Below, piece after piece: positions 1 to 12,833 of a DNA stretch of 64,000 bases. Source of the DNA: an uncultured Bacilli bacterium (GTDB taxonomy: Bacteria; Bacillota_I; Bacilli_A; RF39; UBA660); contig CAKOOK010000002.1 of NCBI GenBank assembly GCA_934098515.1, positions 18,371 to 82,370 on the forward strand. Direction: 5' to 3'. Position numbers and translations under genes: made by a program. The notes beneath the pieces were generated by a model, which searched no databases, was not told the origin of the DNA, and saw only the letters and a program-made list of their open reading frames with translations. Positions within the stretch are counted from its first letter, which is position 1; every line of letters starts with the position of its first letter.

Positions 1-2995
1 CTCTATCATCAGAAATTACTACCCCAAACCATTTATTTTTATTCATTTTAAAATTCTTAATCAAAGTAGTCTCTTCACCTGATAAAATAGAAAACAATAT
101 CCTTGACCCAAACGAAAATGACAAATTTTCATATCTTTTTACAACCTCAATAATAACATTAACAAGCTGTATAAATCTCATTCCACAAACATAAACATTA
201 TGAATATCAATACTATCATTATAAAATAAAATATCCACTTCTTCTCTATCTTGCGTATAATTACTAGGTAACATCATAGTATTACATCCAGTACCATCAG
301 CCTTATAATTAGAACACCCAAGTATCCTAAAATCACTATCCTTATTATCTTTTCTGTTTTTAACAATCAAATACCCATCTACACAATTAGGGCATTTTGA
401 TATAGACATCTTTCCACCCTTCAAATCATTAGTCACAAAACCACAAATCTCCGGATCATTTGAACATATCCATAATCTAGTAGTCTCTGCAATTCTTCTG
501 TTTCCTCTAACTTGTAAAGGATATCCACAACAAGGACACTTAATTGAAGTCCCAACTTGTTTAATTGGTGAAAGCTTATCTCCAGAAATAAGAATATTTT
601 TAAATTTATCTATAATTTCCAAAATAAACTGAGAAGGTTTATAAACCGGCGTTATTACAAACACTCTATTTTTAGTTCTAGTAAGTGCAACATAGAACAG
701 CCTTCTTTCTTCAGCATAATCAACTACTTCAGTATCCTTAATAACAAGCTTCATTACTGGATCATCAACTATTTTAGAAGGAAAACCTAATATAGCATCC
801 TTACCATTAATAATAATTACATTATCATAACCAAGTCCCTTTGAAGAATGTGCTGTCAAATAAGTAAGTTTCAAGTTAGGATACTTAACCGACCTTATAT
901 TATTATAAAAACTAAAGAACTTTTCTTGCTTACCTAATTGATATCCTTCAAATCCATATCTGCCTATCAAAAGCACACTAGAATTTTCACCACTTGTCCT
1001 AACAATTAAATCAAGTGATTTCTCTATTGCCTTACACATTCTTTCAATTGGCGTATCACTTAACTCCTTATCATATCTATCATTATAAGACATAAGAAGC
1101 ACCGGATTCTTAATCGACTTATCACTCTTCAAATCCTTCTTTAACTGCTCATCATTAGACATTACAAATCCACCAGCAATATCAATAAGCTCTTGACTAT
1201 TTCTATAAGTCTTTGTAATTCTTAAAACGTCGGCATATCCCATCATTTCCTCAAACTTAGTAAATAACTCTATCTTAGAACCACTAAACTTAAATATGGA
1301 CTGCCAATCATCACCAACTGCAACAATCTTTGCATCACTACATTTAGAAAGTCTCTCACACAAATCAAATCTTTGTAACGAAATATCTTGATACTCATCA
1401 ATAAAAATATAATCATAAGGTAACTTCTCATTATTATCTATTTTATCCTGAATAATCCCAGCAGCATTATTAATCATATCCTCAAAATCAATACACTTCT
1501 TTGCTTTAAGTTCAGTCATATAGGCCAAATAGCACTGATAACAAATACTAATAAATAACTTAGTTCTCTCATCATTAACAGTAATCTTCCACTCATCAAA
1601 CTTAGAAGCCGAAAAATTATTTGTTTTAAATCTAGATATAAATACACAAACTAACTGAACAAATTTATTAAAATACTTATCCTCTATATTTTTAACAATT
1701 GCACTATAAATCTCTTTATTATTTTTCTGCTCAAAAGATATGCCAGCTCTTTTTAATTCTTCCTTCAAATGTGTAATAGTATCCCTGCCATCCTTATACT
1801 TAGAAAACGTATAAATAAGCTTAGTCCCATGCTTCTTATGTAAAAGAATCTTATCATTAACATGCCTCTTATAAAGATCTAGTTCTTCATCAGAAAACCT
1901 TCCATTTTTGCCATCTTCAGATATTCCAAAATGTTCTATATATATTTCCTTATCATTTTGCCTTATCACAAAATCAGGGCAATATGGCTTAATTGTATCC
2001 CTAAACCCATACGGATAAACCGGCTCATATTCATAATCAATGCCATTTATAAAGAAAAAATTAGCAATCCTGCACTCTTCAGTACTACGTACCTTTTCAC
2101 TTTTTATAGTTCTTTTATTTTTCTCTTGTAACTCTTTATAATTATTAACAGTATCCACTATATCAGAACGCATTGTAGTACAATCATTTTTACTAAGCTC
2201 ATTAATCAGCAAAGAAAGGTCCCCTTCACCACGTGGCACTTCTAAATAACTCGCAAAAAATAACAAAATATTCTTTACAAAAGACTCATCATTCACATTA
2301 TTAATTAAATACTTCTTAATAACACTAAACATAACCTCACTAGAAACAACATTATACTTCTCATTATCATTATTTCTAATTATTGTATTAGCTATAGAAT
2401 GAAATGTTGATATATTAACTGGAAGTCCTAATTTCTTACACCTATCAGCAAGTTCTTTAGTAGCTTTACGAGTAAAAGACACTATAAGAATTCTTGATGG
2501 ATCTACATTTTTCTTATCAATCAAATATTTAACTTTAGCTTCAATTGTCGTAGTTTTTCCAGAACCAGCACCAGCAATAACTAAAGTATAATCTTCATCA
2601 GACAAAACAACTCTTCTTTGTTCTTCATCTAATCGTACATTAGGATCATCTTTAATTAAAACATTATCTAAATATTCTTTATCTAAAGATAGATGCTCAT
2701 TTACAAAATTAGTATTATGAAGTTTAACATTATATTCAGTACTAGCATAATAACCAAGTAATCCACATAACTCAACATAATCAGTTCGATTATTTTTACA
2801 CCACGCAAGTAAAACATTTTCATCCTTCATAAGCATCAACTTATTAAAAACTTCATTAATATCATTATAAATACCTAAATAACACTTTTTTGAAATAAAA
2901 CTATCCTCATTAAGAAGCATCTCTAACTTTCTTTTATACTCACTAAAAATAACATACTCATTAGAATCATTACTAAATCTTTTAAACAAACCCAT
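1..2995 (-). CDS. UvrD/PcrA-like superfamily-1 helicase with tandem C-terminal topoisomerase-type C4 zinc ribbons (5' part; ORF runs off window start)
   Basis: Hand translation of minus strand from ATG at 2995 gives a continuous ORF to position 1. It shows Walker A AGAGSGKTTT, motif II FIDEYQD, LTAHSSKGLGYDNVII, then CPCCGYP..RG and CPNCVDG..GCSNYK..GC zinc-ribbon motifs. No competing ORFs in the six-frame track. Confidence 0.6.
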   Translation of the reverse strand, partial: MGLFKRFSNDSNEYVIFSEYKRKLEMLLNEDSFISKKCYLGIYNDINEVFNKLMLMKDENVLLAWCKNNRTDYVELCGLLGYYASTEYNVKLHNTNFVNEHLSLDKEYLDNVLIKDDPNVRLDEEQRRVVLSDEDYTLVIAGAGSGKTTTIEAKVKYLIDKKNVDPSRILIVSFTRKATKELADRCKKLGLPVNISTFHSIANTIIRNNDNEKYNVVSSEVMFSVIKKYLINNVNDESFVKNILLFFASYLEVPRGEGDLSLLINELSKNDCTTMRSDIVDTVNNYKELQEKNKRTIKSEKVRSTEECRIANFFFINGIDYEYEPVYPYGFRDTIKPYCPDFVIRQNDKEIYIEHFGISEDGKNGRFSDEELDLYKRHVNDKILLHKKHGTKLIYTFSKYKDGRDTITHLKEELKRAGISFEQKNNKEIYSAIVKNIEDKYFNKFVQLVCVFISRFKTNNFSASKFDEWKITVNDERTKLFISICYQCYLAYMTELKAKKCIDFEDMINNAAGIIQDKIDNNEKLPYDYIFIDEYQDISLQRFDLCERLSKCSDAKIVAVGDDWQSIFKFSGSKIELFTKFEEMMGYADVLRITKTYRNSQELIDIAGGFVMSNDEQLKKDLKSDKSIKNPVLLMSYNDRYDKELSDTPIERMCKAIEKSLDLIVRTSGENSSVLLIGRYGFEGYQLGKQEKFFSFYNNIRSVKYPNLKLTYLTAHSSKGLGYDNVIIINGKDAILGFPSKIVDDPVMKLVIKDTEVVDYAEERRLFYVALTRTKNRVFVITPVYKPSQFILEIIDKFKNILISGDKLSPIKQVGTSIKCPCCGYPLQVRGNRRIAETTRLWICSNDPEICGFVTNDLKGGKMSISKCPNCVDGYLIVKNRKDNKDSDFRILGCSNYKADGTGCNTMMLPSNYTQDREEVDILFYNDSIDIHNVYVCGMRFIQLVNVIIEVVKRYENLSFSFGSRILFSILSGEETTLIKNFKMNKNKWFGVVISDDR

Positions 2996-3273
2996 AGTCA
3001 TCAACTCACTAAGATAATTCTACCAAATATTAACAAAAAAATCTGCAAATATTAAAAATTTACAGAACATCATACAATCATAATATATTTAATCAAACAT
3101 AATTTTAACAACTTATTTTTCATTTTCCAGTATAATTAGTAGAAGTAGCAAAAACATCATTTAAATTTTTGCTCTCTTCAGTTAGAAGAGACCAAATTGT
3201 GTTAAACCCTTTAAATACTGGCCTTTTTATATTAGTATAAACCCCCATTTACCGTGTTTTTTTAATATTTTTG

Positions 3274-3293
3274 TACCTAAATTGTACCTAAAA
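3274..3293. repeat. 20-bp direct repeat TACCTAAATTGTACCTAAAA, left copy (internal TACCTAAA x2); about 34 bp similar when extended
   Basis: Exact 20-mer also present at 11907-11926. Flanking bases partly conserved. Confidence 0.7.
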
Positions 3294-3322
3294 AAGACAG
3301 TAGAGTTATCTCTACTGTCCTA
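3290..3322 (-). terminator. Rho-independent terminator of res (minus strand)
   Basis: Minus-strand hairpin GGACAGTAGAG-ataa-CTCTACTGTC followed by TTTTTT, directly after the res stop codon. Confidence 0.55.
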
Positions 3323-3324
3323 AT

Positions 3325-5889
3325 TTACTGAAGCATATTTTCTAATTCACATCTAAATTTTGATTGCCCCTCTAATATTTTACCATTCTTTATGTAATCA
3401 AAAAACTCTGGGTATGCATTAGGGCTCAAAAAATGAAAGATATATTCCTCATTTTCTCCAACCTCATCAAGAATTTCATTTAAATTTTCGAAATGTTCAA
3501 TACCATATTTATATTTAGCTTTATTTTCTTCACTATCATCACCGTCTGCTTTTATTTCGACAACTAAATAATAAACTTTATTATTCTTTACAATTTTAAT
3601 AAAGAAATCAGGGTTAAATAATTGATTTTTAATTTGGTGACTATTCTTTTTCCAAGAGTATTCTATTGAATAAAATCCCATATCTCTTGATTTTATCCAT
3701 GAATCAACACAATTTGCAATTTCCTGTTTTGTCAGGTATTCAACAAAGTCGGATTCAGGTTTTCCAGTTGTAAAAACCATACTCATAGGTGTTTTAAATA
3801 AATAGGTATTTTTATTATTTAGTGATCTAACTGGTCTACTATCATCTTCTATAAAATCATTTAATATTTTTTTATCATCTTCTAATAATTCTTTATCGTA
3901 ATCATCTGTATAATATGCACGTGCCTCTTTTCTTAAACTTGAAATTGAAATAGTTTGTTTTGACATTGAATTTGTATCAATATCAAACACATTCATATTT
4001 TTTGATATTGGAATTACAGTTTTATTCTTCTTTCGTAAAAGTGTACCAAACGTTGTTAAAATATTATTTCTATTTTTTTCTGTTAAATAGTTATCAGTTA
4101 TTCCAACTTTTTTCATAGAATCAAGAATAATTTTTTTTATTATAAATCTGTCTGGAAGATTGTTTTGAGTATATTGTTCTTCTCCAAGCTTTAAAATTTT
4201 TCCTTCCCAATCTCTTGCTCTAAATTCAGTTATGATTTTATCTACTACCTCATCTACAGAATAGCATTCTCGCTTTATAATATAGTTTACTTCACTAATA
4301 TCTCTTGAATTATATAAAGACTGAAATGTAGTACCTTTTTCAATTTCTATACTTTGAGATTCTAATTTTATTCCATTATTTACTATATTTGAATAATCTA
4401 TTACAGTAGAATTTGCTTCTTTAGCTACTTCAATTTCTTCTTTTTCATAATTAATATTTTTTACAGTAAAATTAAATTTAGATCTATAACCTTCTAATAA
4501 AGGATAACCTGCTAATCTTGTTTCAACTTCCAAAACTTCAGAAACTAAATTAGAAATATTTCTACTCCATGAAACATGATTAAAAACTTTTACACTTGGA
4601 ATATTACCATAATATTCACTTGGTATCCTTAAACCTCTTCCTAAAACTTGTGATATTAACAACTTAGAATTAAATGCTCTATCTTCCCACGGAACAATTT
4701 GCATTACATTCTTAACATCCCATCCCTCAGTTAACATTGATACTGAGACAATCCATTCTATTGGACTTTCAATTTTGTCGACACTTTTTAATTTATTTTT
4801 TTCATCTGGTGAAGATTTGCTCGTGATTAATAATACTTTTTTGCTTATTTCCTCATATGATGTATTTAACTCATTTGAAAGAAATTCAATTAAATCTTCC
4901 GATAAATTTGTTGCATTTGAAATATTGGCACATACAAATATGGTAATTGGCTTAATTAAAGCATATCTTTCCTTATTCCTTATATGATTTTGATATATTT
5001 TTTGAAATTTTTCTTTTGTGGTTGTAGTATCATCTTTTATAGCATAATTTATATCTTTTACCGTTCTTTCATCTATTGCTTTTCTTAAAGAATATCTATA
5101 AATAACATCATTAAAGTATTCATTTTCGATATACGCAGTTCCTGTTAACCCTAAAATATACTTAAAGTTATAACTATCATTTAGCAAAAATTCTTTCCAC
5201 TTTTTCAAATCTTTATAAATACTCGCATTATAAATATGGTGTGCCTCGTCATTTATGACTAAAACATTGCCATGTGCATTTTTAAAGCTATCTTCAATGG
5301 ATGAACCAGTATTAGAATAAACTGCGTGAATATTCTCTATACATATATCTCCTGATTTAATTGTATAATTGCCATTAGTTAAATGAGGATTTTTTGTAAT
5401 TGCATCATCAGGAACTAAGCTTTGAATATTATTATCTGATAATAATTGCATAAACTTTTCAGTTAATCCGGCTTCTATTGTTGTAGATGGGCATAAAACT
5501 AAAACTTTATCCACTAACCCCAATCCAAGCATTATTTGTGCAACACCAAATATTATATAAGATTTACCTGTGCCAGTTGCTAAGTCAATAGTCGCAGTTA
5601 ATTTGTTTTTTAATTGTATATTATCATAGTATTCATTTATTGTATTATATTTTTCTTGTAAAACAGGATTTCTTTGATAATTTTCAAGTACTAAATCTTC
5701 AACACTACTATAATTGCCAGATCCTAAATATATAATTGCATTTTTAATTGCATCTATCTGATAATATCTATTACCACATAAACGTTCAATATATTCTTCC
5801 CATTTATCCAATGCTAATTTGTTATGATCATAATTTTTACTAACTTTAAGTGTCAAATCATCTGTTTTAAATATGTAATTATCTTTCAT
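3325..5889 (-). CDS. res: Type III restriction endonuclease Res subunit (SF2 helicase-like)
   Basis: 854 aa. GTGKS Walker A and DEAH box (LVINDEAHH). Overlaps the mod stop by 11 bp (translationally coupled mod-res). Confidence 0.85.
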   Translation of the reverse strand: MKDNYIFKTDDLTLKVSKNYDHNKLALDKWEEYIERLCGNRYYQIDAIKNAIIYLGSGNYSSVEDLVLENYQRNPVLQEKYNTINEYYDNIQLKNKLTATIDLATGTGKSYIIFGVAQIMLGLGLVDKVLVLCPSTTIEAGLTEKFMQLLSDNNIQSLVPDDAITKNPHLTNGNYTIKSGDICIENIHAVYSNTGSSIEDSFKNAHGNVLVINDEAHHIYNASIYKDLKKWKEFLLNDSYNFKYILGLTGTAYIENEYFNDVIYRYSLRKAIDERTVKDINYAIKDDTTTTKEKFQKIYQNHIRNKERYALIKPITIFVCANISNATNLSEDLIEFLSNELNTSYEEISKKVLLITSKSSPDEKNKLKSVDKIESPIEWIVSVSMLTEGWDVKNVMQIVPWEDRAFNSKLLISQVLGRGLRIPSEYYGNIPSVKVFNHVSWSRNISNLVSEVLEVETRLAGYPLLEGYRSKFNFTVKNINYEKEEIEVAKEANSTVIDYSNIVNNGIKLESQSIEIEKGTTFQSLYNSRDISEVNYIIKRECYSVDEVVDKIITEFRARDWEGKILKLGEEQYTQNNLPDRFIIKKIILDSMKKVGITDNYLTEKNRNNILTTFGTLLRKKNKTVIPISKNMNVFDIDTNSMSKQTISISSLRKEARAYYTDDYDKELLEDDKKILNDFIEDDSRPVRSLNNKNTYLFKTPMSMVFTTGKPESDFVEYLTKQEIANCVDSWIKSRDMGFYSIEYSWKKNSHQIKNQLFNPDFFIKIVKNNKVYYLVVEIKADGDDSEENKAKYKYGIEHFENLNEILDEVGENEEYIFHFLSPNAYPEFFDYIKNGKILEGQSKFRCELENMLQ

Positions 5890-7768
5890 TCAAATCACCA
5901 CTACCTTTTTTTATTTCGGTAAACTCATTACCAAAAATATCAGTATATATAATCATAACATCTAAATTACCAATTTTATTAAGATTAATTGTTATATTAT
6001 CATCTATTATTTTCAAATCATTAGCAAAATAATAATCAGTCATTAGAAAGTTTTGTCCATCATAGTTTTTATCAATAAAAATCGAAGCTAACGTTTCAAA
6101 ATTTTTATATTCATTGCCATCATTATCTACTAATGTCTTGCTATAGAATTTACTAAGAATTATTTCAATTGAACTATCATGTAGAATTATTTTGCTTTCA
6201 ACATCAGGCTGTTCAATGAAGTGAAAACCTATTGCCATATCTATATTATTGACACTATTCATGCTTTTTGATTGTTCCATTTTTTGAAATGGATATTTAT
6301 GTAATTCTTTTATTACTTGATATGGAATTTTTAAAAAATAATATCTAATTTCATTAATTTCAAAATAATCATTTAAAAAATCTACATTATTACTTGGAGC
6401 AACAATATAAATTCTGCCATTAATCCTACTTCCAATATTTTTATGTAATTCGTTTAGATAGTCTTCATCAATGCTAGAATCTTTATTTTTATTAAAGTCC
6501 CATATTTTAACATAATGATTCTTTTTAATACCATCAAAAGAAATTCCTGATATTTTCGTTTCCTTTAATTCAAATTCAAAAAGTTCAGAAACAAATTTTT
6601 TATAATCTTTCCAATCAAGTTTTAAAGTTTTTTCTAAATCATATAATCCAAGTTGGTATGTAGAAAATGTCTCGAAATCTTTCCCATATTTTTTATTTGG
6701 ATTAGTTAATGACCTGGATTTTTTAATATTTAATATTCTCTTCTGAATTGTATAAATAGATAATTTACCAATATCGCAAATAATCCACTTTCTTCCTAAT
6801 TTTTCAGCAGCAAAAGCAGTCATTCCTGATCCACCAAAGAAATCCATAACAATATCACCTTTTGATGATGCCGTTTTAATTATTTTTTCAAGCAATTTAA
6901 ACGGTTTTTCTGTTGGATATCCTGTTCTCTCAATTCCATCAATTTTTTGACGAGCAATAACTGGAATGTACCACCAATCTTCTGGAATTTTTCCTTTTTC
7001 CCTATTTTTTATCACATCTTCTTCTGAATAGTCTGCTCCAAATGCCTTTCTTAATCCTTGATTTGGATCTTTATATTCTTCTCTGATTTCATCTTCATTA
7101 AAAATCCATGTATCAGTTTTTGTATACCATAGTATAGTATCATGTTTTCTATTAAATTGTTTCATCTTTGATGATCCTGGACCAGTATATGTCCATATTA
7201 TTTCATTTCTTAAATTATTTTTACCAAATATTTCATCTAAAATCACTTTGATATAATGCGACATCCTGTAATCCAAATGAACAAATATTGAGCCATCATC
7301 TGATAAAATTTCTCTTGCTAAAATCAATCGTCTTCGCAGAAATTCTATAAATTGTGATCCTTTAACTTTGTCGCTATATGCCTTGGCCCCCTTTTTATTT
7401 TTAAATTCATCTTCCGTTGCAAATGGCGGATCGATATAAATGATTTTTACTTTGTCTTTTACTTTATCTTTAATTATAGGATCTTCATTTTCATATATAT
7501 TTTTTAATAATTGCAAATTATCTCCAAATACAAGCATATTCTCCCATTCGTTTTTATTTTTTTTAGCCCCAAACGTTTTATCTTTTTGCAAAGGAATAGA
7601 AAAAACCCCGTCAGCATCTTTTAGTATATCTTCCCTTTTCATTTTTCCAAAATATGACAATTCATATTCTTTATTTACTGTTGGAAAAAGAATTTCTTTA
7701 TATTCATCCGGAATACTATTTCCGGATGTTAACAATCTAATTAATTCATTTTTTGTTTCTTCGCTCAT
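5879..7768 (-). CDS. mod: Type III R-M Mod subunit (N6-adenine DNA methyltransferase)
   Basis: 629 aa. DPPF motif (IYIDPPFAT). Strong SD GGAGGT upstream of ATG. Immediately upstream of res. Confidence 0.85.
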   Translation of the reverse strand: MSEETKNELIRLLTSGNSIPDEYKEILFPTVNKEYELSYFGKMKREDILKDADGVFSIPLQKDKTFGAKKNKNEWENMLVFGDNLQLLKNIYENEDPIIKDKVKDKVKIIYIDPPFATEDEFKNKKGAKAYSDKVKGSQFIEFLRRRLILAREILSDDGSIFVHLDYRMSHYIKVILDEIFGKNNLRNEIIWTYTGPGSSKMKQFNRKHDTILWYTKTDTWIFNEDEIREEYKDPNQGLRKAFGADYSEEDVIKNREKGKIPEDWWYIPVIARQKIDGIERTGYPTEKPFKLLEKIIKTASSKGDIVMDFFGGSGMTAFAAEKLGRKWIICDIGKLSIYTIQKRILNIKKSRSLTNPNKKYGKDFETFSTYQLGLYDLEKTLKLDWKDYKKFVSELFEFELKETKISGISFDGIKKNHYVKIWDFNKNKDSSIDEDYLNELHKNIGSRINGRIYIVAPSNNVDFLNDYFEINEIRYYFLKIPYQVIKELHKYPFQKMEQSKSMNSVNNIDMAIGFHFIEQPDVESKIILHDSSIEIILSKFYSKTLVDNDGNEYKNFETLASIFIDKNYDGQNFLMTDYYFANDLKIIDDNITINLNKIGNLDVMIIYTDIFGNEFTEIKKGSGDLNER

Positions 7769-7905
7769 AACATTACCTCCAAAATACCAATATCCCTTGT
7801 ATAAAAATTATAACATATTTTTCGACAAAATTTGATAATTTGCGACCAATTCATACCAGAAATTACTGAATTGTACGAACAATCTTGACTAATTTTTAAT
7901 TTTAA

Positions 7906-8262
7906 GTGATTAATACAAGGAATTTGAAGAATTGTCTGATTAGAAAATGTACTAACGAGGATATTTCTGATGAAGAATTAGAGAAAGTTATAAATCCTTT
8001 TTATGATAATTATCATAAGTATATTATTACATATGTTATGACTGAAGTAATTATATTTTATATAGCCAGTTCCTTTAGTAGGAATGCTATATGGGAAGCA
8101 ACATTTTATCATCACTATAATTCAGCTAAAGATATATTTAATGTCAGTGATGATGAAAATTATGAAAGTATTAAAGCTGAGGTAATAAAGTTATTAAGAA
8201 TGAAGTATTCTTTAGAAATTATTAGTGAAAATCCATTAGATCTTAAAAAAATTAAGTATTAG
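7906..8262 (+). CDS. hypothetical protein
   Basis: 118-aa ORF with no recognisable motifs. Accessory context. Confidence 0.3.
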   Translation: MINTRNLKNCLIRKCTNEDISDEELEKVINPFYDNYHKYIITYVMTEVIIFYIASSFSRNAIWEATFYHHYNSAKDIFNVSDDENYESIKAEVIKLLRMKYSLEIISENPLDLKKIKY

Positions 8263-8322
8263 TTTTTGTTCTAATACTCTTTTTATTATACAATTTATAA
8301 CTTTCAAGCAGTATATAATAAA

Positions 8323-8966
8323 ATGACAAAGTTTCAAGTTCCTAATGAGTGTAGAAAAGAAATGGCTTATTATACTTATGATAAAATTAAAAAGTTTATT
8401 TCTTATGAAGAAGATATAAGATGAAAATGTGTATTTGAAATATTATATTATTGTGACCTTCGTAAAGGAGAACTAAAAGGTCTTACTTGGAAGGATAATT
8501 ATTTTGATAAAAAAGTATTATCTGTTAATAAACAAATAACTCAACGAAATAATCGTGTTAAGTATGAATTTTCGGATACTAAAACAAGAGATAGTAGAAG
8601 AATAGTTTTCATTATTAAAGTCTTGTTAAATGAACTTAAAATGCTCTATGAACAGGATAAAAAAGAGTATTACGAATTTAATGATGATTTCTTTGTTGTA
8701 TCTGATGCTAAACCTATAGCTGATTCTAATATATATATCTTAGAAGAACTAAACTGGCTACATTAGCTGGTTTAAAGGTTATTAGGATCCATGATTTTAG
8801 ACATACGTGTGCATCACTACTTATTAACAATGGTGCTAATGCTACATTAGTTGCAAAATATTTAGGACATACAAAAATCGAGGAAACACTAAATACATAT
8901 TCACATATGTTTAGTACTGCCCTCGACTCTGTTGTTTCTGTTATAGATAGCTTAGAAGATGACTAA
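8323..8966 (+). pseudogene. Tyrosine recombinase/phage integrase remnant (5'-truncated, in-frame TGA at 8422-8424, frameshift near 8750)
   Basis: Translation gives ..LRKGELKGLTWKD.. then, after a frame switch, ..IRIHDFRHTCASLL..LGH..TYSH.. (HxxR box and catalytic Tyr). No SAM-like N-domain. Broken reading frame. Confidence 0.7.
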
Positions 8967-9907
8967 GCTATTTTTTTATTATATGTTCTACATTCAACTG
9001 GTTGCAAATATTGTTCTTCTGGTTCAACTCCATACATATCTGCTCTAAACTCTTCTAAATTTATCAACATTTTATTTAAAAATTTATTATTTATAATATA
9101 ACTTTTATAATCATCAGATTCCTTAATTTTAACATCAAATAATTCTTTTTGCAGTTCTAAAAGTTTTTCCAATACCACCGCTTCATTTCCTTCTCCATTT
9201 AAAAACAATTGAAAATGGTAACATTCCTCTTTCATTTTATTTAACATTTCAAATAAGGGTTGATATGTATTATTATGTATTTTTGTATAAGATTTTTCCC
9301 CTGAAAAAAACTGCATATCGCCTAACATAAAACTTAATTCAATAGTGCTTTCTTTTGATATACTTATATATTGTTCATATATTTCCTTTGCTTTATTTCT
9401 TAGCTTTTCAATATGTGTATCTACACACTCACTAGCATATATTTGTATAGATGTCTTAGATACTTTTTTTGCTAATTCAGGATGATTGTTAATATATTCT
9501 TTTATAAGAATATCTTTATATTTTTTATCTCCAATAATAATTTTATCTTTACTTATCTTATTGAATTTTTCTTTCCACTTTTTATTATTTAATTCATTTA
9601 TATATGAGATAACGGTATCTTTGCTATATTCATTAAATAAAAATTGCATATTAGAAAATTTTTCAATCAATCTTCTGGTTTCCTGCCAATATTTTTCTAA
9701 CAATTGTCTCTTACTAACATTATATGCTGGAATAGCTAGTAAAAGAGCTACGCATCCACTTCCAAATAAACCTATAAATATGTTTAATAATACTTCAAAT
9801 AATTTATTATCATAGTTTAATACTAAGAGAGTAAAAATTATTATTAAAACTAAAAAAATACTACTTATAATAATCGAAGCTTTTAATGCTCTACAATTTG
9901 CTTTCAT
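8963..9907 (-). CDS. hypothetical membrane protein (2 N-terminal TM helices plus long Lys/Glu-rich, probably coiled-coil cytoplasmic domain)
   Basis: 314-aa ORF. Hydrophobic segments at residues about 10-30 and 40-60. Start overlaps the stop of the upstream Zn-ribbon ORF (ATGA). Confidence 0.5.
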   Translation of the reverse strand: MKANCRALKASIIISSIFLVLIIIFTLLVLNYDNKLFEVLLNIFIGLFGSGCVALLLAIPAYNVSKRQLLEKYWQETRRLIEKFSNMQFLFNEYSKDTVISYINELNNKKWKEKFNKISKDKIIIGDKKYKDILIKEYINNHPELAKKVSKTSIQIYASECVDTHIEKLRNKAKEIYEQYISISKESTIELSFMLGDMQFFSGEKSYTKIHNNTYQPLFEMLNKMKEECYHFQLFLNGEGNEAVVLEKLLELQKELFDVKIKESDDYKSYIINNKFLNKMLINLEEFRADMYGVEPEEQYLQPVECRTYNKKIA

Positions 9908-10125
9908 TATTTTTCACCCTGAATATTACTAATAACATATTTAGATAATTCTTCATAATCACTTATATTTCCAATTCTTTTTAAATATTCATATCCACCA
10001 TCTATTGCAACTGCACCACATGAGCATCTTTTAAAATCATTAATATCTTTTGATTCAAGAATTGAACCACACTTTTTACATTTTATCTTGTTCAATTTTA
10101 TTATTTTTATTTCTTTATTTTCCAC
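9907..10125 (-). CDS. small zinc-ribbon protein (CxxC...CxC)
   Basis: 72 aa. CKKCGS...CSCGAV. Translationally coupled to the 314-aa membrane protein. Confidence 0.45.
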   Translation of the reverse strand: MENKEIKIIKLNKIKCKKCGSILESKDINDFKRCSCGAVAIDGGYEYLKRIGNISDYEELSKYVISNIQGEK

Positions 10126-10240
10126 AAAACATCACCCAAGAAATATTATATCATAACTATGCATTATGTATATTATACCGTTCGCGATATAATATATTTT
10201 ATTCAACAAAAAAAGAACATTAATTGCTCTTTTATGAGGT

Positions 10241-10359
10241 GTTCAGTTCTGTTCGGAGCTGTTCAATGTGTTCGCTCCTGTTCAGAGCTGTTCACTTCTG
10301 TTCAGTGGTGTTCAGTTCTGTTCAGAGCTGTTCACTTCTGTTCAAAGCTGTTCAGCCAA
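10241..10359. repeat. Tandem array of 12 x 10-bp units (GTTCAnnnnn) with 40-bp higher-order periodicity
   Basis: GTTCA at 10241, 10251, 10261, 10270, 10280, ... 10350 (step 10, one 9). 20-mer GTTCAGAGCTGTTCACTTCT exact at 10280 and 10320. Confidence 0.85.
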
Positions 10360-10360
10360 A

Positions 10361-11812
10361 TTATTGTTTTATGATATATTTTCCATAAGCGTCATTCTTT
10401 GTAGTACCAGTCCATATTATTAATTCTTTTTCTATTAATCTGTTTAGCAATGCTACAGCAGTAGTTTTACTTCTACCTATTATATTACTAATTTCTTCTC
10501 TTGTTGCTCCATTGTTATTAATAATAAATTCAATTGCTTTTTGCTCAGGATATGTTAATTGATTCCAAATATTTTTTACTGTTTCATTTGATGAAGCATT
10601 GTTTACATTAGATCTATTTTCTATATCATTATCCAAAACAAGCAATACTGAATTACGATCCGGTTCAGAATAATCTGGATCTTTCAAATTATAGTCATGC
10701 ATCTCTTTATAAATTCTTTTTACACCTTCATTTAATTCTCTTACAATGCCAAACTCAACTAATGCTCTTGCAATTTGTGGATTTCTTGAATATCTTTTTA
10801 CCTTCATTGTATCTAATGTTACAAAACCGCCAAGTTTACCAGGAGAAGATATTTCCATTCTATTATTATATATTTTCACTATTATTTGTTCACCACTATT
10901 AGAATAATCTCTATGAGTTACAGCATTAACGATTCCTTCATACCATGCAAATTCCGGATATTCAGGATGTTTTTCAAAAACACCATTTGAATTTAAATAA
11001 CTAAATTCTCTTAATTGCGAATTAATAAAATCCTTGGCTTCATTTAAAATTCTATATAAATTTTTATCAAAAGTCTTTTCTTTTATTACATTCATTGAAG
11101 TTCCAATTTGAAAATCATTACCTTCAAATTTAATTACTCTTAAACGAGAGCAAGGAAAATATATTGATGGATTTTTACCAAATAAAAGCATACCTGCATT
11201 AGTAAATTTTAATTCACCCTTAATTTCTCTAATATAACCTCTTGCTTTTAATACAGAAATATCATCAGCATCTGTATCAATTTTTTTCTTAAAAATACCA
11301 ACTACTTCTGTATCAATATCATCCATGCTAGAATCCCAAACAATTTGATTTTCAAAATTAGTTTCATTTCTATCATATTCTAAACTTTTTATTTGATCAT
11401 ATGTTAGTTTAATAGATGAGTCTCCTTGTCTACAATAAACCTCATCCTTAACGTTTCTAATTACTCTATTCATAGATGGTTCTACGTGATATAAAATTAT
11501 AATATCATCTTCATCTTTAGAATTATTAATATTTATTATCTCACAATTGCAAATTGGTGTCGGCTTTAAGTATGCTGAAACTATTTTCTGTGCTTCGTTT
11601 AATTTATCTATTCCATATTTGTTAAATCCTTCTATTTTTCCATTATCTGCAACACCAAGTGCTACTATTCCTCCTTGAGCATTAGCTAGTGCCATTACCT
11701 CATTAGCAACCGTTTTCAAATCTGTTTTACCAGATTTCCTTTCAAAATATAGATTTTCAGGTTGTTGCAAATATTCTATTGTGATTTTTTTGTTTATTTT
11801 AGATAAAGACAT
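10361..11812 (-). CDS. COG2865-type ATP-binding protein (AlbA_2/Schlafen-like divergent AAA domain + HATPase-like + C-terminal wHTH)
   Basis: 483 aa. N-term FERKSG...ANAQGGIVALGV typical of AlbA_2. C-term ..ATREEISNIIGRSKTTAVALLNRLIEKELI (HTH). Confidence 0.6.
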   Translation of the reverse strand: MSLSKINKKITIEYLQQPENLYFERKSGKTDLKTVANEVMALANAQGGIVALGVADNGKIEGFNKYGIDKLNEAQKIVSAYLKPTPICNCEIININNSKDEDDIIILYHVEPSMNRVIRNVKDEVYCRQGDSSIKLTYDQIKSLEYDRNETNFENQIVWDSSMDDIDTEVVGIFKKKIDTDADDISVLKARGYIREIKGELKFTNAGMLLFGKNPSIYFPCSRLRVIKFEGNDFQIGTSMNVIKEKTFDKNLYRILNEAKDFINSQLREFSYLNSNGVFEKHPEYPEFAWYEGIVNAVTHRDYSNSGEQIIVKIYNNRMEISSPGKLGGFVTLDTMKVKRYSRNPQIARALVEFGIVRELNEGVKRIYKEMHDYNLKDPDYSEPDRNSVLLVLDNDIENRSNVNNASSNETVKNIWNQLTYPEQKAIEFIINNNGATREEISNIIGRSKTTAVALLNRLIEKELIIWTGTTKNDAYGKYIIKQ

Positions 11813-11906
11813 ATTATCACCTCATTAACATTTTATCATAAAAATGAGTTATTTATTCAATTATTAAAATATTTATACTAAATAAATTTTTAATTCTAAT
11901 TTTTTT

Positions 11907-11926
11907 TACCTAAATTGTACCTAAAA
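11907..11926. repeat. 20-bp direct repeat TACCTAAATTGTACCTAAAA, right copy
   Basis: Exact match to 3274-3293, same orientation. Confidence 0.7.
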
Positions 11927-11971
11927 TTATTTTAGCAATACTGATACCTCGTAAGCTCTTATAAAATGGGA

Positions 11972-12110
11972 CCAAAAAATGAGAGCACAGTTAAATGCTC
12001 TCTTCAGGGGGTTTTGGTTGATACACCTTAACATTGAATTCGTTAAGGTTATCAGCATGATATCTCTACCATGCTAAAATAATCATAAACGAATTTTTAA
12101 TCTTTGTCAA
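11972..12110 (-). ncRNA. candidate small RNA (sigma-A promoter + three stem-loops + intrinsic terminator)
   Basis: Minus strand: TTGACA (12109-12104) - 17 nt - TATGAT (12086-12081). Then hairpins AGCATG..CATGCT, CCTTAAC..GTTAAGG, GAGAGCA..TGCTCTC followed by ATTTTTTGG. No ORF. Confidence 0.35.
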
Positions 12111-12230
12111 TCACAATTTTTAATAATTTACAAAATGTTAATTAAAATAGTAAATTCTCTATTCTTTAAAAAACGAGAAATTAGTTTTATAATCCTTTTC
12201 TTTTCTGTCATGAAAGAAAATTAAATAAAA

Positions 12231-12833
12231 TTATTTAACTTTTTTAAGTTCTTCGTAATATAAAATAAATGTTACGTTCATATAAGGAACAAGCCAAATA
12301 TATAAAATTCCTAAAGTAAAAATTCCAAGTAATAACCAGCCAAAGAAACTTAGAACTAACATAAAATAATCCATCTTATATCCATTCATCATTTCCTTAC
12401 TTTTTCTAATGCAATCCATCGGATTCGTATTTCCATCGATCATTAATAAATTTACCATTGAGTAACTTAATGCTGCAATAATACCAGGAATAATAAGAAG
12501 TAATGCCCATAAAGTTGAAAATAGTGAAGTTAAAAACCATACTCCAAATATTGGTCCAAACATCTTGTAATATTGAAACATTCCTTTAATATCACATTCT
12601 TCACCTCTAACAAATTTCATAACATAAGCAGTAGCTCCAAAACTTAGTGGTAACGTAATAATTGTTGATAGCATTTGTGCGCTCGTACTAACATAAATAT
12701 TATCACTATTTACTCCAAAAAATGCTCCAATAAGCGAATTTATCAAAGACACAATAACAAACGGTATTACTAAATCCCACACATGGCCTTTAATCATAGC
12801 TTTAGCTTTTTCTTTTAATTCTTTTCTATTCAT
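12231..12833 (-). CDS. DUF975-family integral membrane protein
   Basis: 200 aa, multi-TM, N-terminal basic stretch. Family call from overall architecture only. Confidence 0.45.
   Translation of the reverse strand: MNRKELKEKAKAMIKGHVWDLVIPFVIVSLINSLIGAFFGVNSDNIYVSTSAQMLSTIITLPLSFGATAYVMKFVRGEECDIKGMFQYYKMFGPIFGVWFLTSLFSTLWALLLIIPGIIAALSYSMVNLLMIDGNTNPMDCIRKSKEMMNGYKMDYFMLVLSFFGWLLLGIFTLGILYIWLVPYMNVTFILYYEELKKVK

Follow-up and report, generated by a model that had tools for sequence, protein, structure and literature searches.

The window analysed here is a stretch of 64,000 nucleotides from an uncultured Bacilli bacterium (contig CAKOOK010000002.1, positions 18,371 to 82,370). Near its left end, an accessory island lies between a UvrD-type helicase gene on the left and the genes DUF975, recG and PFOR on the right. 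Two copies of a 20-mer, TACCTAAATTGTACCTAAAA, bracket the island genes, which include a Type III-like restriction–modification (R-M) pair, mod and res, a tyrosine-integrase pseudogene, a 10-bp array and an ATPase of the SLFN/AlbA_2 type. The original prediction, made from the letters of the window, had listed these genes, and they are found as it had described. Comparison with related genomes makes it likely, in our judgement, that the island (about 3170–12001) belongs, in a degraded and immobilised form, to a widespread family of tyrosine-integrase islands in small-genome gut Bacilli, and that the 20-mer is an arm repeat of this family.

Repeat, core and boundaries of the island

The 20-mer stands at 3274–3293 and at 11907–11926, on the + strand in both places, and the prediction that these are its only copies in the window holds even when up to three mismatches are allowed. 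The count expected by chance is 0.03, and two or more copies arose in none of 100 shuffles. The bases beside the two copies are partly conserved, as had been remarked, with an imperfect extension of 31 nt at 93.5% identity, and the motif is indeed built of two units at 11-bp phase: on the - strand it reads as the tandem 11-mer TTTAGGTACAA, which occupies 3271–3281 and 3282–3292 in the right-arm copy and 11904–11914 (with one mismatch) and 11915–11925 in the left-arm copy. The window has a G+C content of about 27%, many weak AT-rich repeat pairs are listed in it, and this pair too could in principle be a product of chance or of low complexity in AT-rich intergenic sequence; against the shuffles, and against the presence of the 20-mer in conserved contexts in 111 stretches elsewhere, we lend this practically no credence.

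The junction with the chromosome is visible in contigs of the same species. When the exact DUF975 protein was searched in public assemblies, most contigs proved collinear with the window and one type, represented by L003, differed. L003 encodes an identical DUF975 protein and carries another element right after a small RNA (sRNA) gene that lies downstream of DUF975/recG in the window; this element encodes a live integrase of 400 amino acids (aa), a Mob_Pre relaxase and a replication protein with DnaB_C/AAA_25. The window matches L003 at 99.98% identity as far as window position 11997, beyond which the two diverge, the last clear common block being ...AACCAAAACCCCCTGAAG, and the homology break falls at CCCCCTGAAG (12002–12011), 76 nt outside the 20-mer at 11907–11926. 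A lookup of the SLFN/AlbA_2 protein gave the contigs L121 and L124, in which an element with the L003-type arm repeat sits in tandem between the sRNA gene and the window-type island. The right end of this tandem element reads ...TATTAGGTGCTATTTATGTGCTAAAAT, 112 nt, CCCCCTGAAG, and the terminator and 20-mer that belong to the window island come directly after it; as there is no overlap between L003 and L121, they may represent one long element or two relatives. Because the tandem element in L121/L124 ends on it, CCCCCTGAAG is, on the evidence of these contigs, a working attachment core in the window species. Both states of the site are seen for the L003-type element, the window being its empty site and L121/L124 being occupied.

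The core forms the 3′ end of the sRNA gene, and a second copy that could serve as the attR core is absent from the window, even with one mismatch allowed. The right arm of the window island is cut after GAGAGCA at 3170, so that its attR core has been lost. In relatives the right arm goes on with GG-CCCCCCTGAAG and the native sRNA terminator; most of their right-arm copies end in this way, with the core at the right end, and intact members carry the identical core at both ends (L046 and L078 on one contig, for example), whereas the window island has one core. The 12-mer TGCTCTCTTCAG, present at 3170–3181 and 11996–12007, was a first guess for the attachment core and was dropped after comparison with the relatives. 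It is part of the right-arm end structure: its right-hand copy overlaps the true core, and its left-hand copy lies in the conserved hairpin just inside the attR core.

At the other end, the outer left arm of the window agrees at about 90% with a consensus drawn from 67 left-arm copies of species whose RecG is about 50% identical, and includes the replacement terminator of the sRNA, GAGAGCA-TTTAACTG-TGCTCTC with a T-run, at about 11974–12001. The inner left arm, a conserved segment of about 100 nt with a hairpin terminator, is missing in comparison both with this consensus and with the sister-species locus L008, and the SLFN/AlbA_2 promoter region stands in its place. From these comparisons the island spans about 3170–12001, not 3274–11926. 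The annotation of the window is corrected in its boundaries, in the role of the repeat as an internal arm motif and in the status of the island as fixed, and it gains the true core, the sRNA target and a single-deletion history (Table 1).

The same island in another strain (L122, 18500–21452) has kept a fuller right end (…GAGAGCAGGACCTCTGAAGAAGTCGAAAGG…). Its right flank holds a gene for a 305-aa protein, guanylate kinase and SMC in place of the helicase, which is a rearrangement or a further element.

Table 1. Coordinates of the island and its target in the window
Feature	Position	Strand	Remarks
Rest of right arm	3170-3270	-	about 95% conserved across species; ends in hairpin GGTCTCTTC-TAACT-GAAGAGAGC(A)
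Right-arm 2 x 11-bp repeat	3271-3293	-	TTTAGGTACAA x2; includes 20-mer 3274-3293; candidate arm-type integrase site
Cargo block 2, conserved module to right arm	3325-7768	-	Type III-like R-M pair, mod + res
res	3325-5889	-	Pfam ResIII/SWI2_SNF2; ResIII 2e-19
mod	5879-7768	-	Pfam N6_N4_Mtase 2e-50; PADLOC Type III methyltransferase 5e-55
Inner-edge remnant of the family's conserved module	7791-8284	+	88-90% nucleotide identity to L130/L131
Junction of about 3.7-kb deletion	8284-8292		blastn against L130/L131
Tyrosine-integrase pseudogene	8292-8966	+	codons about 147-369 only; frameshift about 8733-8739; N-terminal arm-binding domain deleted
Cargo block 1, left arm to integrase	8963-11812	-	Pfam, PADLOC, tandem repeat finder
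314-aa protein	8963-9907	-	no family match (Pfam, PADLOC)
DUF7695	9907-10125	-	Pfam
10-bp-phased TGAACAG array	10236-10355	-	tandem repeat finder
SLFN/AlbA_2-HATPase_c_4-winged helix-turn-helix protein	10361-11812	-	Pfam/PADLOC
Left-arm 2 x 11-bp repeat	11904-11926	-	TTTAGGTACAA then TTTAGGTAAAA; includes 20-mer 11907-11926; candidate arm-type integrase site
Outer left arm	11927-12001	-	replacement sRNA terminator, then conserved spacer of about 45 nt
Unannotated sRNA gene of about 100 nt	11974-12075	-	two hairpins, C-rich tail UCAACCAAAACCCCCUGAAG, terminator; chromosomal integration target; read from sequence
attL core CCCCCTGAAG	12002-12011	-	crossover region at sRNA 3′ end; sole copy in window

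A family of islands with conserved arms

When the GTDB representatives, with one genome for each species, were scanned for the exact 20-mer, the 111 stretches that carry it came from about 94 assemblies, at one to three copies per genome. The genomes are labelled uncultured Bacilli, Tenericutes, Mycoplasma sp. CAG:877, Acholeplasma sp. CAG:878, Firmicutes CAG:321 and Erysipelotrichaceae. Nearly all copies stand in one of two fixed contexts. In class A, the left arm, the sRNA tail and CCCCCTGAAG are followed by a terminator (GAGAGCA-TTTAACCG-TGCTCTC and a T-run), about 45 conserved nt, the 20-mer and about 100 conserved nt with a second hairpin terminator. In class B, the right arm, variable cargo ends in a terminator abutting the 20-mer, and then come about 107 nt at about 95% identity, ending in GGTCTCTTC-TAACT-GAAGAGAGC-AGG-CCCCCCTGAAG, and a species-specific native terminator. 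The core and the 20-mer are separated by about 75 nt in the left arm and about 107 nt in the right arm.

Conservation in these arms decides where the element ends. The original prediction had taken the 20-mers for attL/attR-like crossover sites, which would make the island exactly 3274–11926, and the two copies are indeed exact, in direct orientation and placed around all accessory genes. Moreover, the cargo of the right arm ends exactly at the 20-mer, and it does so in 37 right-arm copies of other species. In the 67 left-arm and 37 right-arm copies of other species, however, conservation is unbroken between the core and the 20-mer, the latter included, in either arm, which makes the 20-mer internal to the element. 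The sequence outside the 20-mers (75 nt on the left, about 107 nt on the right) is about 90–95% identical between species with RecG proteins of about 50% identity, and it therefore belongs to the mobile element and not to the chromosome. In addition, the independent L003-type element has CCCCCTGAAG as its junction at the same locus, it is this core that is duplicated at both ends of intact members (as L046 and L078 on one contig show), and a hybrid of class-A upstream and class-B downstream sequence, the scar of recombination at the 20-mer, was found in 0 of 121 copies. Homology break and conservation thus put the junction at CCCCCTGAAG, and crossover at the 20-mers is very improbable.

The same survey bears on a second proposal of the original prediction, in which the 20-mer is a transcription-factor operator common to the helicase and SLFN/AlbA_2 promoters. 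Each copy does lie upstream of a minus-strand gene, and two 8-mers one helical turn apart resemble a site for a dimer. The copy at 3274, however, is about 280 bp from the helicase start and directly follows the res terminator, and a helicase homologue comes after the motif in 2 of 40 class-B loci, at 31–37% identity. The distance to the SLFN/AlbA_2 start is about 95 nt in the window and about 190 nt in L008, with an unrelated spacer. Across the GTDB representatives the 20-mer never recurs at unrelated promoters, its one to three copies per genome keeping the arm context save in a few odd cases (L032, L082, L034/L084, L096), and this context is constant in about 94 genomes whatever the neighbouring gene. 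A shared operator is hardly tenable in the face of this distribution.

Inside the family, the usual order begins with recG, the sRNA gene, the left arm and one to three cargo genes, continues with the integrase, a cI-like repressor (helix-turn-helix, HTH, with an S24 peptidase), a Cro-like HTH protein, an 87-aa protein, a replisome organiser (Phage_rep_org_N and Phg_2220_C), a 142-aa protein and HNH, and closes with a 108-aa open reading frame (ORF), more cargo and the right arm. The conserved module of intact members, comprising integrase, cI-like and Cro-like proteins, replisome organiser and HNH, measures about 4.7 kb. Cargo on the left side in relatives includes Fic, DUF3800, an HTH-M78 protein, a PemK-like toxin and DUF7695, and on the right side Type I R-M with a shufflon recombinase, OLD/AAA-type ATPases, PIN and a D12 methylase. 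The arms lie 4.4–16.3 kb apart on one contig, with several pairs near 16 kb; in L028, a long-read metagenome-assembled genome (MAG) with arms 4.4 kb apart, the ORFs are fragmentary and unusable for gene content. Where elements of the family stand in tandem (L041, L057, L069), the junction between them is the same as the attP type. In L008, a gene for an IS200/IS605-type Y1 transposase (123–587) lies just upstream of the left arm, at the place expected for the sRNA.

Decay of the integrase and probable role of the arm repeats

The tyrosine integrase that the original prediction had called dead proves to be both truncated and frameshifted. With six intact 368/369-aa integrases as tblastn queries, residues 149–295 align in one frame (8299–8739) and residues 293–369 in the other (8733–8963), and over residues 149–369 of the intact 369-aa protein the aa identity is 89–97%. 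In blastn, window 7791–8284 corresponds to L130/L131 6248–6731 (88–90%) and window 8292–8975 to L130 10439–11119 (90.8%). As the flanks of 8284/8292 align to split blocks of L130, a single deletion of about 3.7 kb separates the window island from its relatives. Compared with L130–L132, HNH, the 142-aa gene, the replisome organiser, the 87-aa gene, the Cro-like and cI-like genes and integrase codons 1–146 have been lost. By reason of this deletion, the integrase frameshift and the loss of the attR core, the window island is crippled and unable to move. Every contig read that encodes the SLFN/AlbA_2 protein carries the island, as does every DUF975 contig reaching past the sRNA gene, which fits fixation after mobility was lost. 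The original picture of an integrated, decayed, defence-carrying island is therefore upheld, with the repeat assigned to the island ends.

Intact members would enter the chromosome by site-specific recombination at the core CCCCCTGAAG(AGAGC), where the conserved sRNA gene has its 3′ end, and they bring in a replacement terminator for the sRNA. Variable, mostly defence cargo lies on both sides of the conserved module, between the two conserved att arms. The 11-bp tandem pairs, one per arm in direct orientation, would be bound by the N-terminal arm-DNA-binding domain of the integrase, and the recombination complex would be assembled on them. The intact family integrase matches Arm-DNA-bind_4 (PF14657) at 24.9 bits (cutoff 22.3) and Phage_integrase at 4e-28. 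The L003 integrase (400 aa), which is 50% identical to the family integrase (369 aa), matches Arm-DNA-bind_4 at 32.2 bits, ahead of the catalytic domain as in the family integrase. The L003-type element has its own 25-nt repeat, TTAGGTGCTATTTATGTGCTAAAAT, which consists of two units of about 11 bp; each arm has one copy, the two are in direct orientation, and they lie at distances of 58 and 112 nt from the core. Because the repeats are one helical turn apart, because there is one pair per arm at lambda-like distances, and because their sequence changes with the integrase lineage, we infer that the 20-mers are arm-type integrase sites.

The tandem 11-mers could instead be end-linked sites of another kind, bound by a directionality factor or repressor, or acting as replication iterons or a packaging signal, and the family does encode cI-like, Cro-like, 87-aa and replisome-organiser proteins that could bind repeats. 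Such a role is a poorer fit: the L003-type element, which bears a relaxase and DnaB_C/AAA_25 and no phage-type organiser, shows this two-arm layout too, and the feature shared by the two elements is an integrase with Arm-DNA-bind_4. One site per arm at a lambda-like distance also suits arm sites better than an origin or packaging site. We regard another end-linked role as unlikely, and arm-type integrase sites remain the preferred reading.

Besides this competing role, several observations weigh against the picture of an integrase island with arm sites, or against parts of it. In two MAG contigs (L032, L082) the 20-mer comes after the 3′ end of a tRNA gene, and it stands in unrelated-looking contexts on contigs binned as Duncaniella/Christensenella (L034, L084; L096); these odd copies could come from relatives whose core specificity differs, or from contamination in binning. 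An empty site of the window island was not found in the same species, where the L003-type contigs are not resolved past the tandem element, and insertion is consequently deduced from the family. Nor did helicase homologues at 88, 82, 72 and 69% identity (P0002, P0003, P0005, P0022) lead to a clean sRNA–helicase junction, and their loci contained either other islands or the helicase with different neighbours. No circular or excised form turned up, with no attP-type scan of the metagenome collection made. Binding of the integrase to the 11-mers is argued from the architecture and the Pfam domain. A satellite-type mobilisation of the family is suggested by gene content within 10 kb of the integrase; no helper phage, packaging gene or signal, or evidence of induction was identified, and a single IMG/VR contig carries the 20-mer.

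The favoured reading of the window island as a decayed integrase island can be set beside known systems. Tyrosine integrases of the lambda type (heterobivalent), as in lambda, P2, HP1, L5 and Tn916, act with arm-type sites. The island family resembles them in the N-terminal arm-binding and catalytic domains of the integrase, in a short core common to attL and attR, in tandem direct repeats of about 10–11 bp in both arms, tens to about 100 bp from the core, and in a repeat sequence that differs between integrases. It differs in having one repeat pair per arm, in direct orientation, as candidate sites, and in an inner right arm where conservation does not extend past the repeat; the window copy, moreover, is without the integrase N-domain and the attR core.

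In their gene content the intact relatives resemble phage satellites and islands like the phage-inducible chromosomal islands (PICI) with defence hotspots (PMC9122126, PMC10085698, PMC13376191). Like these, they measure 4.4–16.3 kb between the arms, combine an integrase with a cI/Cro-type switch and a replication organiser, and carry variable anti-phage cargo (R-M, Fic, toxin–antitoxin, OLD-type ATPases) at fixed positions. Capsid or terminase matches to Pfam were absent within 10 kb of the integrase in relatives, the middle of the 16-kb members being read only in part. Unlike the known satellites, the family resides in uncultured small-genome Bacilli and has a cargo hotspot at each end, and the window copy has lost the whole core module.

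The sRNA target, the cargo and the flanks

The sRNA gene has a predicted sigma-70 promoter with a −35 element TTGACA at 12105–12110, a −10 element TATGAT at 12082–12087 and a 17-nt spacer, and the layout of promoter, two hairpins and C-rich tail also occurs 3′ of recG in about 30 other species. Among class-A loci, 26 of 75 have the conserved sRNA downstream of recG, with RecG adjacent in 20. MAFFT/RNAalifold found compensatory changes in six of the six predicted pairs of the second hairpin; it misaligned the length-variable first hairpin, and the support is limited to the second. No credible Rfam family was found either at the gathering threshold over the whole window or at E ≤ 10 over 11700–12300, the best match for the region being PrrF (28 bits against a gathering score of 90).

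Known islands and prophages integrate into the 3′ ends of tRNA, tmRNA and small RNA genes and restore the end of the gene. The present case agrees in that a structured RNA gene with a promoter is the target, at its 3′ end and terminator stem, that the element gives a substitute terminator and that several unrelated elements use one site and are stacked in tandem. It departs in that the target is neither tRNA nor tmRNA; it is an sRNA of about 100 nt with a C-rich tail and no Rfam match. The window island is, in this respect, nothing out of the ordinary, being a decayed integrase island situated at an RNA-gene 3′ end; no new mechanism is required, and the locus is an example of arm-site-dependent integration, island build-up and decay. 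It draws attention to an sRNA gene without annotation, the 3′ end of which each arriving element rewrites.

At least ten other elements abut the same core, each with its own tandem pair of about 11-mers some 125 nt away, such as GGTACCCATTTAGGTACTCAA and TTTTACCTATACTTTTACCTATAC. Elements on the CCCCCTGAAG core other than those of the 20-mer family are present in L010, L016, L019, L020, L023, L026, L033, L035, L065, L071 and L114, and the 3′ end of the sRNA gene is a multi-element hotspot with tandem build-up.

Both the island family and its target sRNA appear to be undescribed. With confidence a little above even, we propose that this C-rich sRNA of uncultured small-genome gut Bacilli, usually encoded downstream of recG, is a shared landing pad for many integrase lineages, each with its own 2 x 11-bp arm code and replacement terminator, and that the 20-mer family is a new, cross-order one, made up of minimal phage-satellite-like carriers of defence genes with a cargo hotspot on either side. 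In practice, the exact 22-bp motif together with the CCCCCTGAAG core provides a sequence handle on a defence-gene hotspot in about 94 species of uncultured gut Bacilli.

The cargo of the window island has intact reading frames throughout (the R-M pair, the Schlafen/AlbA_2 ATPase, DUF7695 and the 314-aa protein) and is presumably what is retained; it would function in defence. The mod and res genes are adjacent and overlapping, as in Type III R-M, with an N6_N4 methyltransferase and a ResIII/SF2 helicase. Unlike that of typical systems, res has no match to a PADLOC restriction endonuclease model and only a weak match to Cas3, and the pair is labelled Type III-like. The terminator hairpin of res (3296–3320) abuts the right-arm 20-mer. 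Within the remnant of the conserved module, a 118-aa ORF (7906–8262), whose counterpart in relatives has 108 aa, is without a Pfam or PADLOC match.

Directly 3′ of the stop codon of the SLFN/AlbA_2 gene are twelve TGAACAG heptamers in 10-bp phase on the - strand. The sister-species locus L008 has an analogous 10-bp array (CAACTGCAAA x5, 2440–2500) directly after its own SLFN/AlbA_2 gene, whose product is 23% identical. These arrays may be binding arrays for the winged HTH domain of the SLFN/AlbA_2 protein.

Identities between species point to horizontal spread of the family. The integrase pseudogene is 89–97% identical at the aa level to integrases of species whose RecG is about 50% identical, and in L076 (CAKONF010000001.1, 1–8000), where RecG is 59% identical, the SLFN/AlbA_2 gene is 99% identical and follows the same left-arm junction. 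High identity of integrase and SLFN/AlbA_2 beside a distant RecG indicates spread between species, the L076 match indicating a recent interspecies transfer. On the strength of the same two identities, acquisition and decay of the window island appear to be recent.

The UvrD-type helicase beyond the right arm (1045 aa, window 1–2995) has homologues at 57–99% identity in many related species (L006, L008, L055, L125, L126). Their neighbourhoods differ and are often rich in defence genes; in L126 the homologue lies between the L31 gene and rpiB.

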